Shown here: piece by piece, positions 33,200 through 62,764 of the stretch
Layout: every line of letters begins with the position of its first letter
Numbering within the stretch: the stretch's first letter is position 1
From: Octopus vulgaris
Taxonomy: Eukaryota
NCBI GenBank assembly: GCA_951406725.2
Contig: OX597819.1
Location: forward strand, 83,080,001 to 83,144,000
DNA length: 64,000 nt
Direction of reading: 5' to 3'
Translations under genes and position numbers: made by a program
Notes under the pieces: generated by a model
What the model was told of the DNA's origin: nothing
Database searches by the model: none
Seen by the model: the letters and a program-made list of their open reading frames with translations, nothing else

Positions 33200-33287
33200 T
33201 TGTAGGCGCTGGTAAAATAATTGAAACCCAAAATAACTTCAGAGAGTGCCGCGATTTTCTAGACGAGTATGCCACGACAGATTGTCA
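33200..33287 (+). CDS. Exon 2 (type A, phase 1 to 2): (V)VGAGKIIETQNNFRECRDFLDEYATTDC
   Basis: Acceptor ttgttgtcag|TT, donor CA|GTAAGT, open frame, ends on Cys plus 2 nt like every type A exon. Confidence 0.8.
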
Positions 33288-35663
33288 GTAAGTATATGCA
33301 AATATAAACATAAGCAATAAAAAATAAAAACAAAATCTAATGAAAACACAGAAAATACAGAATCATACAAAAATACGCAGGAAACTAAAAATTAAAGTAC
33401 AAAAAACATGCAGAAGCACAAAAAACACGAAGAAGCACAAAATACACACACATAGATTGGTGTATACTTCTTTTGCGATTAAGCAATGAATGAATCCAAG
33501 CGCGATGTATAGAAATCGTGGCCTACTTGACACTGAGATCCCATTTCAACAAACTTTAGGTAGGCCGAAGTAGTGTCAGGATGCAGCATTTAATACTATT
33601 AGTTGGAGGTAACAACCAGCAGAAAAACAAATGATCTATCAGGCTGTTTTAAGCAACACACTCCGGATGTTTTCCCTTATATTTTGATATTTTATAACTT
33701 ACACTGAAGATATAGATGCTATTTACTCATAATCATGTGGGCTCTAGAGGGTATAGAATCTCTGATGGGTTGAGAATACGTATTTCACAGTAAGTCATAC
33801 ACATTTGGTCTCCACCATCTCTCATCTATGCTACTGAGAAAATATAGCATACATCAATTAACACAATCTGCTAACCCATTTCAACAGGCTGTCCAAAAGA
33901 GGCAATCTAATAGATGTAAAACAATTGAAAATAGGGAACTGCTCAGATCTGAATGCCAAAACTATTTCGTTATGCTGGTTTGATGAAAGTAACGAAGTGA
34001 TTCAAATGATTCAGCAGAGTCCTGAACATCAACTTCTATTGAGGCAAAAGAAATAACGAGTTCAAAAATATTATTGAGTCTAGCCTTTATGACCACGAGA
34101 GTAGGAGTTATTGAGTGCAATCCTTAACGGATAAAATTTTGAGTACTCCTCTCCCTCACCCCGATAAAGATCCATTATGATAGAGAAAGAGCATGACGAC
34201 GGGTGATATTAAAACTGAAAGTCATAGTTTTGGACCTGCATACCACTGCGTGTGGTTGTGTGGTCTCTCTTCTCTGTACCCCATGGCAGAAAGGAAGTTA
34301 GGTGTATTCTGGAGACTAATGTGAAGGCTTCTTTAGAATTGTCAATGCTCATTAGTAGCACAAAGGACTATCAAAAGCGTTCGAAACGTTAGCTGTTCTT
34401 CAAACTAACGAGCCAATGGAGAAGTCATTACTTAGTCACTTAACTGCAAACAATTCGTATTATTATCTAAAAATTATTGATGAGGCTCAGCCTGAGGCCA
34501 AACAGTGAACTACAGCAGCAGAAACCACAACAATAACAATAGTAGCCTACTTTTTGTGGTCAAGATTAAACGGAAGGAAAAATAAAGGAAGCACTCATTC
34601 TTTATGCATAGAGCATGCATACTTTATTTGACAGAGGCAACAGAACAAGTCTTTTCTAGAAACCAGACCTCGTAGCAATAAAACTGGCAGGGCAAGATTA
34701 GTATAGATGATTAAACCTTATGAACTAGACGATGGCTACATGTTTTTCAGGGAAGATCGAGACAGAAAACCAGATCCATGCAATTAATCTAGCTTTTAAG
34801 AGTAAGCGAATGGATTTTAAATTCCCTTGCATTTTAAAAATTTCTCTTGCTTTTTTATCAGTGTCTATACACTTGCCCTGAGAAACAAGTAAGAAGAAAA
34901 GAAATTATACAGCCATCTTCATTTTTCAATAAAGAAAACGGTTGCTATTTATAAGCTTGTCCTACTGTAAATTTAGATGTCAGAGTCGATTGTTACCACT
35001 AGTGCTATGAACGAACTCTAAAGCCTCACAAAATTGAGGAACAAATAGAAATAGTTTGTTCCTTCAGAATAAGTTTGCAGCGAACCATCACAGCATTAGC
35101 TAGCTTTTTAAAATATTCAGTAACTATATGACTAAGTGAATACATCTCAGGTTTTGACAACGGTATTTATTGATTATGGTTTTTATCCGTAAATGGGATA
35201 CTGCAATATAAAGATCATCAGGACCATGTGATGAGCAGACTGTTAGAATAACCAAACTCGTAGGTAAACATTCACTCTCTACATTTCCTAGATGAATTTC
35301 AACGAAGGAATATGGATACTGAAGAATCTTAGAAGAGGACTGTGGAGTTTGAGAACCGAGTCTATGAGATTCTTTCAATGACGAAAATACATGAACCACT
35401 GACACGAGACCAAATTGAAAGGTGGAATTCGTAGTTCTTTAGTTATATGTCAACATTGGTTAAGCAGATCTATGATAAAAAGTGTTCCAAATGTTTGTAT
35501 TCTAGACATAATATAAATTATTCAAACTCTCATTTTTTTTAAGACTGTGGGGTGTGATTTGTGGGATGTCCGGTTGCTATTTCTGTGTTCCTGTTATAAT
35601 GAAATAATATTGAAGGTATCTGATTTAAGTATTTCATTAATTGTTATTAATAATCTTTTACAG

Positions 35664-35752
35664 ACGTGTTCAGAATATTCACCTCTGTACTCAAATGCTC
35701 AATGGAATGATAAAAAGTCGTGGAAATCAAGAAATTAATCGCCTGAAATGCA
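35664..35752 (+). CDS. Exon 3 (type B, phase 2 to 1): (Q)RVQNIHLCTQMLNGMIKSRGNQEINRLKC
   Basis: Acceptor taatcttttacag|A, donor CA|GTGAGT, 89 nt, frame compatible with both neighbours. Confidence 0.82.
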
Positions 35753-36830
35753 GTGAGTATATAATTCATATAATTCAAATATCTAGTATTTGATTCTCAT
35801 CTATGAAATGAGATGGGATATCATATCTTGCTCTAAATTAGAATCTACTGCATAACTTACAAATTCGAATTAGCGGCAAAGTACTGACTCTAAAACTGAG
35901 ACTTGATCATGCTGAGATCAACTATCAATTAATATATAAAGCAATGAATATTTAAACTTACTTGGAGGTATGTTCGTAAAACAATAATTAGTTCGCATTT
36001 TGAAATAGAATAGCATGGTATAAATAAAATTTAAGGCCTTGTGCTTCCAGAAGAAAGGATTTATTAATGTTGAAAAAGTGTGACACGCTGACAATCACAT
36101 TTACTATATGAGATATGTTTAATTTGGGGGAAACTTTATTTCAGCTAATGTGTTGTGTATATTATTTATATATATATATATATATATATATATATATATA
36201 TATATATATATATATATTCGAAACACGCTGGTGTTGAACTAGGGACAGCTGATGAAGGGGATTTTTCCTTGTGTAGTTGTCTTGTACTCTGTTTTTTCGT
36301 TGTTAAAAAAATGGTCCGTTCCATGCTAATTTTACGTTTTCGTGTCTCGTTGAGTTCTATGTCTATTTGTGGTGTCCTGTACACACGTATATATATTTAT
36401 ATATGCATGTATATATACATGTAGATGTAGGTACGTACATATATGTTTGTATGCATGCATATATTTTATTTATTACACTATTGTATGACTGAGTGCCTTC
36501 GCGTCGATTCGATTCGATTCGTTTCGTTTCGTTTAGTTTCTCCTTCTTCTCTAAGCTGGTTTATATATATATATATATATATATATATATATATATATAT
36601 ATATACATATATGTATATACATATATATATATACATATATATATACATACATACATACATACATACATACATACATATATATACATACATACATATACAT
36701 ATATATATATATATATATATATATAGAGAGAGAGAGAGAGAGAGAGAGAGTTTACGAAAAAACAAAAGACGAAGACAGGTGGTGTACAAAACAAACAGAT
36801 GTATTAGTATAACGCTCAGTAATAGAAAAA

Positions 36831-60263: not shown

Positions 60264-60764
60264 GTAAGTAATTTTTGTTATGTAAGTACATTGATATGTT
60301 TAATCCAATATTATAAGAGGAATGTTCATCAGAAAAATATGGAAAACATGTTAGTGAATTAGGTGTCAATAAAATATTAGTGTTCTATTTTAGATAATGA
60401 AATTTAGCTCCTCAATGTATTTGTTATGATTTATGCTAGATTTTAGGGAAAATAATTGTTACATATCACTGACATGAACATGAACCCAATAAAATATTAA
60501 TATTACAAAAGTAAAGATTAATAACTGTCATCAATCACTCTTTTAAAAAAATCTTCACTTAGTAAAACATTTTTCTAACTTGCACTTTTGGCTTAGTGAA
60601 GATAAGTAAGAGACAGGGAAGCGTTTTTCAAATTTTTTTAATATGCTTACAAAAAATGTTAACATTTCAATTTATAGGCATATGTTAGACTTATGAATGT
60701 GGTATTTAAAAAATGATAAATATAAACACCACTAGATCAACAATATTGCCTTGGTGCAGCAGTT

Positions 60765-61240
60765 GATCTATTGAGAGAGTCTGAAAAAGCTAAGACTTTT
60801 GGAGAGAAGGCATAAATGATATGCAGTGATATGTATATATTGAAGATCCTGGAAAGTTAAGCACCCAACTTTGGAATTGAAAGATATACCAGACACCAGA
60901 CTGGATGCCACTACACAGTACCAAAGATTTAACATTCTCCATCCAAAGTAACAACCCAATACTGTAACAGTTTAGGATTCAAAGGCCCACAACTTTTCAA
61001 AACTTTGCTTAAAAGCCTCAGTTATCTATGGTGTGTAGCAGTGGGTGTATTCAAAGAACACTTGCACAAATTTTTATCTGATATACCAGATGAACCCACA
61101 TCACATCAACAAATGCAAAGAAGGGCAGCTCTGTCCAACTCACTACTTAACTGGACCAATTCCAGAGCCAAAGCCAGAAAATTAGTTTAAAATAATCAAG
61201 AGAGGAAGCTAATAGCTGTGCTCCATCATGGCCTGAAACT
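60765..61240 (+). mobile_element. 3' end of a CR1-group LINE
   Basis: Degenerate ERLKKL..LERR and NSLGFKGPQLF...VGVFKEHLHKFLSDIPDEPT...RAALSNSL. Confidence 0.68.
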
Positions 61241-62675
61241 AATGAGAAACTAGCAGAACAAAATACAATATATTTATCTTTATTCCATAGTTTATCACAT
61301 TGATATTTCTAGAGATTGATTAAGTATCCCACTGCACCACTTATGTTACCTCAGCCTTCATAATACTAAATACTTTGAGCTTTTGCATTTACTTTCATGC
61401 TTTTAATTTTACTGACGTGCTGTTCTCTTGTCACTATAAAAATCTCTCTTAACTGTAATGAGTTTATCTAGAGGTTTCAACTTGCAATCTTTTGTACAAA
61501 ATTTGCACATGACTCTAAGAAATTGATATTATCCAAGGATATAATTTCTACATTGAACATGCATTGTACATAAAATGTTTCTTATCAATTATTGATGTAT
61601 AATTAGCTCTGCAAATCGTTGACAAAACCCACTGCTTTAATTGCCACAATAAACATACAAAGGATTCTTAGTCAAGCAAGGTACTTAACTTTACTATCTA
61701 CCTTGTCGTGTAATGTAGCATGGAGAGTTAAAGTGGAGACACAATACAACGGATATCTGTTTTAACAGATGATTACAAATATGTTTAGGTTCCACTAAGA
61801 GGAATATAAGTTCTAAAATTGCAATTCACCTCCTACTAAGGATAAAATCCTCAAGAGAATAGAGAAATTACAGTGGTGAGAAAACTTTCAAATCTAGTTT
61901 ATATCTACAATGAATTGTATAGTGGTGCAATTTTTCAATGGCAGCTATTGCATTTCATCAATGGATTTTTTCCTTAAAGAAATCTGTTTATCTTTTGTTG
62001 AAGAGCTCTCCAGATAAACTAACTACAGTGTTTGTAGAATTAATTTTCGTTCCTCAATTTATCAAATAATTATCCGAATATATTAAATATTTCATCAGGA
62101 TATTACCATCAACTTTATATTAAGCTTATCAGAACAGTAGTATGCTTCAATTAGTAGAAAAATAATTCATCACTAAACCTAAAGACATTCAGTATTTAAT
62201 TTTGTCCTGATATGTGATGAGTTAAGATGTTGTTGTGGATGATATTTCATTCTCACTTCTCTGAAAATTGATATAGTAAGAACATGTCATCTGCTGGAGG
62301 AAATTATGCCATGTATTGTAGCCTAAAATTATTTAGTTTTAAATGAATATAAGATATTATTTTCCTCTTGCCACCTTCTGTTAAAATGGTAAATTTACAT
62401 TGATATTCTTTTATTGTAAATCCTATTTGTGCACACTTATTCTATCCACTAATAATTTCTGTTCACTTTTAACAATACTTAACTTCTGGAATGGGTACAA
62501 AGTCACAAATATTTAGGGGGAAAGTACGGTTGTATGAATCAAACCTACTACATAGCAAGTACTTGTCAGATTCAGAAGATGCAGTCAGGTCCTTTGTTCT
62601 CAGCATTACAATTTCTTCTAATCTTTTGTAAAATAAAATGTTGAATTCCTACTTTAATTGCGATATATTTTTTAG

Positions 62676-62764
62676 CACATTGAAAGCATACAAATCAAAT
62701 TTAAACAATAAGAATTGCAAGATACCAGACGACATGGAGTCAGAATACAAAGCTTTAAAATGTG
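62676..62764 (+). CDS. Exon 9 (type B): (N)TLKAYKSNLNNKNCKIPDDMESEYKALKC; gene probably continues
   Basis: Poly-T acceptor ...tttag|C, donor GTG|GTAAGC, 89 nt (same length as exon 3, both end LKC). No stop codon reached. Confidence 0.82.

Follow-up and report, generated by a model that had tools for sequence, protein, structure and literature searches.

An octopod gene likely encoding a surface protein of six cysteine modules, two of which lack a pair of cysteines

The window analysed here, a 64,000 nucleotide stretch of the Octopus vulgaris genome (assembly GCA_951406725.2, contig OX597819.1, positions 83,080,001 to 83,144,000, forward strand), carries nine exons of a real, spliced gene that is annotated as uncharacterised. 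The gene likely encodes a glycosylphosphatidylinositol (GPI)-anchored surface protein of six modules, these being predicted three-helix bundles that are likely locked by disulfides, with a binding role as the likeliest function. The six cysteines of a full module are very likely wired C1-C5, C2-C4 and C3-C6, because two paired cysteine losses and structure prediction agree on this arrangement. The gene is a member of an octopod tandem family, which likely consists of surface binding proteins with the RGM/neuritin fold.

Exons were recovered by a scan of the window for AG...GT exons with at least two cysteines, together with inspection of the sequence. The nine exons have AG acceptors and GT donors and when joined give 242 open codons with 20 cysteines and no stop. 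Eight of them (33200-62764) had been proposed in an earlier reading of the same DNA, hereafter the original prediction, and are right as proposed, all having (C/T)AG acceptors and GT(A/G)AG donors. The start of the gene lies 9.7 kb further upstream, in an exon (23544-23595) absent from that prediction. Exon phases alternate 1-2-1 along the chain and each module is thus encoded by two exons, with phase-1 introns on either side, as follows:

23544..23595, forward strand: exon 1, ATG and signal peptide (amino acids 1-17), hydrophobic N-terminus, phase-1 donor; 100% identical to amino acids 1-17 of the annotated protein P0003 (see below)
33200..33287, forward strand: module 1 exon a, C1 slot occupied by Glu26 (33223-33225), C2 = Cys34, C3 = Cys46
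35664..35752, forward strand: module 1 exon b, C4 = Cys55, C5 slot occupied by Gly61 (35704-35706), C6 = Cys76, R-G-N tripeptide
41527..41596, forward strand: module 2 exon a, Cys83, Cys91, Cys99
51029..51120, forward strand: module 2 exon b, Cys108, Cys114, Cys129; joint 51120>51955 in four of four putative RNA runs
51955..52030, forward strand: module 3 exon a, Cys134, Cys142, Cys155
55225..55331, forward strand: module 3 exon b, Cys164, Cys176, Cys191; covered by spliced contigs (X1 record 1, X3 record 16)
60200..60263, forward strand: module 4 exon a, C1 = Cys195, C2 slot occupied by Leu203 (60232-60234), C3 = Cys212
62676..62764, forward strand: module 4 exon b, C4 slot occupied by Asn221 (62698-62700), C5 = Cys227, C6 = Cys242, phase-1 donor

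As the donor of this exon is of phase 1, the gene continues downstream. Modules 5 and 6 and the GPI-like tail lie outside the window, and the window scan gave no further exon candidate between 62764 and base 64000. The four modules originally described are therefore those of the window, with the protein having two more past the last exon found. No paralogous exon set was present elsewhere in the window, where tblastn gave only stray rows with E-values of at least 0.15.

A search with a single exon led to an Octopus sinensis protein, the cluster mate of which is P0003 (O. vulgaris CAI9724484.1, 382 amino acids). Residues 1-242 of P0003 are identical to the nine-exon translation, and nothing in its 382 residues is left over once the signal peptide, the six modules and a tail of 30 residues that includes a hydrophobic stretch are counted. 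Transcript support was sought in four of 24 listed runs, from four studies, in the form of contigs; their RNA status was guessed ('RNA?'), none being recorded as RNA, and they were mapped onto positions 50900-62900 of the window only. The joints 51120>51955 and 60263>62676, with GT..AG ends, occur in all four of these putative RNA runs. One contig of 949 nucleotides lies on three exons with zero mismatches, and the gaps in its record fit the two intervening exons; the two other joints within 50900-62900 were not among the matches listed (75 further rows stand outside that list). In one contig the joint reads 60263>62677 and a single letter stands between the two parts; this is read as a base change and not as an alternative exon border.

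The spacing pattern given in the original prediction for modules 2 and 3 is as claimed, with 7, 7, 8, 5 and 14 residues between successive cysteines in module 2 and 7, 12, 8, 11 and 14 in module 3. Modules 1 and 4 have four cysteines each, spaced 11, 8, 20 and 16, 14, 14 respectively, and 30 full modules from eight proteins served to test their assignment to slots. The first cysteine of module 1 stands 11 residues before C3, within the C2-C3 range of the full modules (6-15) and outside their C1-C3 range (14-23), and its C4-C6 gap of 20 agrees with the full modules; the empty slots are those of C1 (Glu26) and C5 (Gly61). The first cysteine of module 4 stands 16-17 residues before C3, which is the C1-C3 range, and three residues past the preceding C6, the same linker being seen before C1 of modules 5 and 6. 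With C3-C5 and C5-C6 both at 14 residues, the slots left empty in module 4 are those of C2 (Leu203) and C4 (Asn221). The C3-C4 spacing is 8 in 30/30 full modules, and C6 is followed by the next C1 after 3-6 residues. In an alignment of 44 modules (MAFFT) the empty slots fall in cysteine columns; when the cysteines were masked the module register was not recovered, and the slot assignment thus rests on cysteine spacing and exon borders.

Relatives of the protein were identified in O. sinensis, O. bimaculoides, O. vulgaris and Argonauta hians, and they form three paralogue lineages. The homologue searches gave four matches among 1.84 billion representatives and six among 1,323 candidates; outside Octopus and Argonauta they returned a single weak repeat-protein match (P0012), and squid and cuttlefish were not represented among their matches, which does not imply absence. 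Module 1 is without C1 and C5 in all six proteins that cover it, and module 4 is without C2 and C4 in 8/8 proteins, bearing out what had been claimed for each. C3 and C6 are kept as stated, with 32/32 cysteine positions invariant in the six full-length proteins versus 84/295 other positions, and no mature chain has an unpaired extra cysteine. The orthologue alignment that had been proposed as a source of further paired losses yielded none, with no additional independent cysteine loss in the eight aligned proteins. Since the paired losses are common to all relatives, they are older than the divergence of the paralogues and amount to two events. Module 1 is also the best conserved of the modules, at 68% non-cysteine identity versus 39-53% for the others in five proteins (P0002, 94% identical to P0003, and two partial sequences were left out).

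It is worth mentioning some further features of these relatives. An N-S-T glycosylation sequon in module 6 (P0003 amino acid 318) is invariant in all eight aligned proteins. The accession next after P0003 is that of P0008 (O. vulgaris CAI9724485.1), the annotation of which apparently fuses a full paralogue with a third, shorter copy consisting of module 1, a full six-cysteine module and the start of another. This makeup suggests a tandem gene cluster and module deletion. The weak match P0012 (eukaryote, 476 amino acids; E-value 5e-9 against the family profile) has a signal peptide, five repeats of the form C-x10-C-x15-C-x8-C-x3-C-x-C and a hydrophobic tail, and is possibly an eight-cysteine cousin of the module from outside the molluscs.

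With respect to the disulfides, only one of the 15 possible intra-module pairings fits both losses, namely C1-C5, C2-C4 and C3-C6. Four random single losses in 36 slots fit one common pairing in just 2.8% of 200,000 draws. The paired-loss pattern by itself is nevertheless suggestive and not decisive, and the predicted structures are the second line of evidence. The AlphaFold2 model of the full protein, built from eight sequences, has a mean predicted local distance difference test (pLDDT) score of 65, with blocks of 73-89 in modules 3-4. The modules are predicted as three helices: helix A is short, helix B is long and bears C3 and C4, and helix C occupies the C5-C6 interval, with helix A of module 4 being reduced in this model. 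A DSSP bridge (133:177) adjoins Cys134 (C1) and Cys176 (C5) of module 3 and is repeated in a separate model of that module (pLDDT 80). Most modules have only five residues separating C4 from C5, so that helices B and C should fold into a hairpin carrying C6 back to C3; C2 and C4 would then be left to each other. Both models hence agree with the pairing that had been put forward from the losses.

Two other explanations of the exons and their cysteines have to be considered. One is that the exon chain is a chance assembly from intronic sequence, as the exons are short (52-107 nucleotides) and scattered through 39 kb of DNA rich in repeats. However, this has next to no probability given the identity to the annotated protein and the orthologues in three other octopod species, and for modules 2-4 it is refuted by the spliced contigs in 4/4 runs. 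The losses had also been offered as independent evidence for the exon model; they are minor in this respect beside the P0003 identity, the spliced contigs and the 32 invariant cysteines. The other explanation is that the losses mislead, with orphaned cysteines having re-paired or with bonds running between modules (C6-x3-C1). It could draw on there being only two events, on the 3-6 residues that separate C6 from the next C1 and on a model support that comes from the bridge and the helix layout. However, C6-C1 bonds between modules would leave odd cysteine numbers in modules 1 and 6, both models have the bridge beside C1 and C5, and the third copy in P0008 drops whole modules with its cysteine counts intact. 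Moreover, the last module has a C6 with no module following it, and so the bonds should close within modules. We regard misleading losses as improbable, and C1-C5, C2-C4, C3-C6 as the preferred wiring.

A number of points tell against this account of the gene and its product. The runs that support splicing are contigs of guessed RNA status, and the module 1 exons lie outside the stretch to which they were mapped. Only two loss events are available, and two-plus-two losses are compatible with a pairing by chance in 105/225 cases (47%). Similarity between module profiles is weak, with a best hhalign probability of 15%. Module 1 is of low confidence in the full model (pLDDT blocks 42-59), and the models speak for the wiring through the DSSP bridge and the helix layout. 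The putative GPI anchor is read from hydropathy, and the putative binding role from the architecture.

A GPI anchor is highly probable from the sequence features. Both termini of the protein are hydrophobic, small residues follow the last cysteine, and the 30-residue tail after it, with a hydrophobic stretch, occurs in 6/6 proteins together with the absence of any internal hydrophobic segment. The secreted chain would accordingly be GPI-anchored and present six disulfide-locked bundles in a row. Within each, C3-C6 would clamp the hairpin of helices B and C and is never lost, and C1-C5 and C2-C4 would each tie the short helix A to the hairpin, either of the two being dispensable; module 1 would keep C2-C4, and module 4 would keep C1-C5 with its helix A reduced in the model. 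Module duplication may have been permitted by the symmetric phase-1 exon pairs. The architecture somewhat favours a binding role, of the co-receptor or adhesion type, over that of an enzyme. Module 1 suggests itself as the binding end, being the best conserved of the six and the farthest from the membrane, with the remaining modules perhaps acting partly as spacer.

The gene lies in AT-rich, repeat-laden animal DNA. A broken element of the long interspersed nuclear element type (15464-20308, forward strand) contains pieces of reverse transcriptase, with RVT_1 matches at 16909-17424 and 17683-18570. A remnant of a mariner-type transposase with a Mos1 helix-turn-helix match is found at 41999-42382 on the reverse strand, and two more such remnants, judged by eye from the sequence, are at 30850-31800 and 56100-56950 on the forward strand. 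The intron between modules 3 and 4 contains a very abundant repeat (57990-58620), at which contig depth is thousands-fold above that of the exons in 4/4 runs.

In this analysis RGM and neuritin were named as a lead before both structure searches. Among 48,161 chains, the best match to the module-3 model was the N-domain (ND) of RGMB (Z 4.5, root-mean-square deviation 4.5, 59 residues aligned) followed by RGMC-ND (Z 4.3, root-mean-square deviation 4.0, 57 aligned). The ends of the latter match (model 64 to RGMC 121) would set C6 on RGMC residue 119, which is a cysteine according to a C119F entry (PMC6370684). For module 6, treated with a different predictor and a different structure library, the Atlas structure search placed neuritin in row 2 (template modelling (TM) score 0.65 over 57 residues) and the RGM_N domain of RGMB in row 3 (TM 0.66) of 10. 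Against a relationship, the RGM matches to module 3 are within 1 Z of unrelated helical bundles (the next being at 4.0 and 3.9), have deviations of 4-4.5 Å and show 10-16% identity, and the module-6 Atlas rows were 'under the bar', a bacterial protein (TM 0.66) and TPR proteins (0.60-0.63) scoring alike. Pfam gave no match at its cut-off for 10 proteins or seven module-3 stretches, and no row for RGM_N or NRN1 at E-values up to 10, although few matches with E above 0.1 pass the HMMER filters. There were 0 matches at E<=10 in the PDB sequence search with both alignments. Foldseek found no match at E<=0.001 with the full or the module-3 model, two of four chains being at Z 2.5 on a second look, and VIA with the full model gave generic helical rows, with RGM absent from the best 50 listed. 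Common ancestry of the fold with RGM-N/neuritin is, on these models, an even call.

The gene and wiring could also stand with a fold of independent origin, that is, a generic three-helix bundle of molluscs or of eukaryotes at large, similar to DUF19/CPG4, stapled by disulfides and without RGM or neuritin ancestry. This is a credible option of somewhat lower probability: Z scores are level with unrelated bundles, Pfam and PDB gave no sequence match, the Atlas feature leads are mostly mollusc clusters, and P0012 has modules with C3-x8-C4 yet eight cysteines. However, RGM-N comes up among the leading matches for two modules, from two predictors and in two libraries, and C6 falls on a cysteine in the end register of RGMC. 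A more specific proposal is that the protein sits on octopus cells as a multivalent RGM-like co-receptor or decoy for growth factors of the BMP/GDF type. It would be in keeping with the fold lead to RGM-ND, with a GPI-like tail as in RGMs (PMC6370684) and with the R-G-N of module 1, which is the tripeptide of an RGMB loop (PMC7354924). In the RGM family, the loop RGD/RGN with a leucine at +3 and a histidine at +6 is described as binding BMP/GDF (PMC7354924). However, the motif R-G-[DN]-L-x-x-H is present in none of the 12 proteins collected. Module 1 (amino acids 66-68, exon 35664-35752, forward strand) has R-G-N in 8/10 copies, some of these being near-duplicates, and R-G-K in the other two. 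Moreover, R-G-N stands 10 residues before C6 versus 21 from RGMB Arg100 to the C6-aligned residue, and C5-C6 is only 11-14 residues, making helix 3 shorter. As module 1 reads R-G-N-Q, with the following leucine and histidine of RGMB missing and the register different, the likeness to the RGMB loop is a probable coincidence. The co-receptor proposal is thus very unlikely, and a BMP bound as in RGMs is an improbable ligand. It is also unlikely that octopods multiplied an RGM-N/neuritin three-helix module to make a family of GPI-anchored six-domain proteins, these being multivalent growth-factor co-receptors or neural wiring molecules that bind through the R-G-N loop of their conserved distal module. 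The preferred reading is therefore kept to a GPI-anchored protein of six bundles with a likely binding role.

A six-fold RGM-N-like repeat with two natural disulfide deletions appears to be undescribed. No mention of six gene and protein identifiers of the family was found in the literature searched, which covers few subscription papers, and nothing relevant was found linking RGM-N, neuritin or such octopus proteins. With this analysis, an uncharacterised family of octopod genes, with three paralogue lineages, receives its first structural reading. The family also provides natural two-disulfide versions of a three-disulfide bundle, which indicate the bonds that such a fold can spare. If the RGM/neuritin link is true, octopods took a fold known for roles in axon guidance and BMP co-reception in vertebrates and reused it as a repeat, which would be relevant to research on cephalopod gene-family expansion.

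The disulfide inference itself is a published routine method and no new principle. The tandem-mutation assumption, that co-lost cysteines are partners, is used by published predictors such as PhyloCys (PMC4498770). The logic is the same, applied here to the repeats of one protein and two events as opposed to the approximately 1,000 homologues of PhyloCys (PMC4498770).

Other helical, cysteine-rich families were compared with the modules. GDNF/GAS1 (GFR-alpha) proteins are alike in their helical, disulfide-rich, repeated and GPI-type architecture, and the relatives P0004 and P0005 have the UniRef label 'GDNF/GAS1 domain-containing'. This label looks wrong, as the octopus modules have three helices and six or four cysteines and give no Pfam GDNF match; the D2 domain of GFRAL has five helices and five disulfides (PMC13234300). 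The Atlas feature matches are unnamed, mostly mollusc clusters (0.83-0.85), and serve as leads only. DUF19/CPG4 also has helical cysteine modules; it gave no Pfam row and was not among the 10 Atlas structure rows listed.

Neuritin (CPG15; NRN1, PF15056) is a six-cysteine helical GPI-anchored protein, and module 6 may be alike in predicted fold over the 57 residues noted above, at a score under the bar of the search tool. Neuritin is a single domain in a chordate cluster, with no sequence match to the octopus protein and its six modules. The RGM N-domain probably has both the wiring C1-C5, C2-C4, C3-C6 and the spacing C3-x8-C4. RGMs are GPI-linked surface proteins (PMC6370684), and in RGM-ND a bundle of three helices is joined by three disulfides (PMC7354924). 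The possible likeness to the RGM N-domain (RGM_N, PF06535; PDB 6z3m_C, 4ui1_C) lies in the six cysteines of each full module and its three predicted helices. Membership of the RGM family was ruled out, the octopus protein being without the C-terminal neogenin-binding domain (RGM_C), its 382 residues being otherwise accounted for, and without the RG[DN]L-x-x-H motif. Helices A and C of the octopus modules are shorter than those of RGM-ND, and the octopus protein has six tandem copies of its module, whereas RGM has one N-domain.

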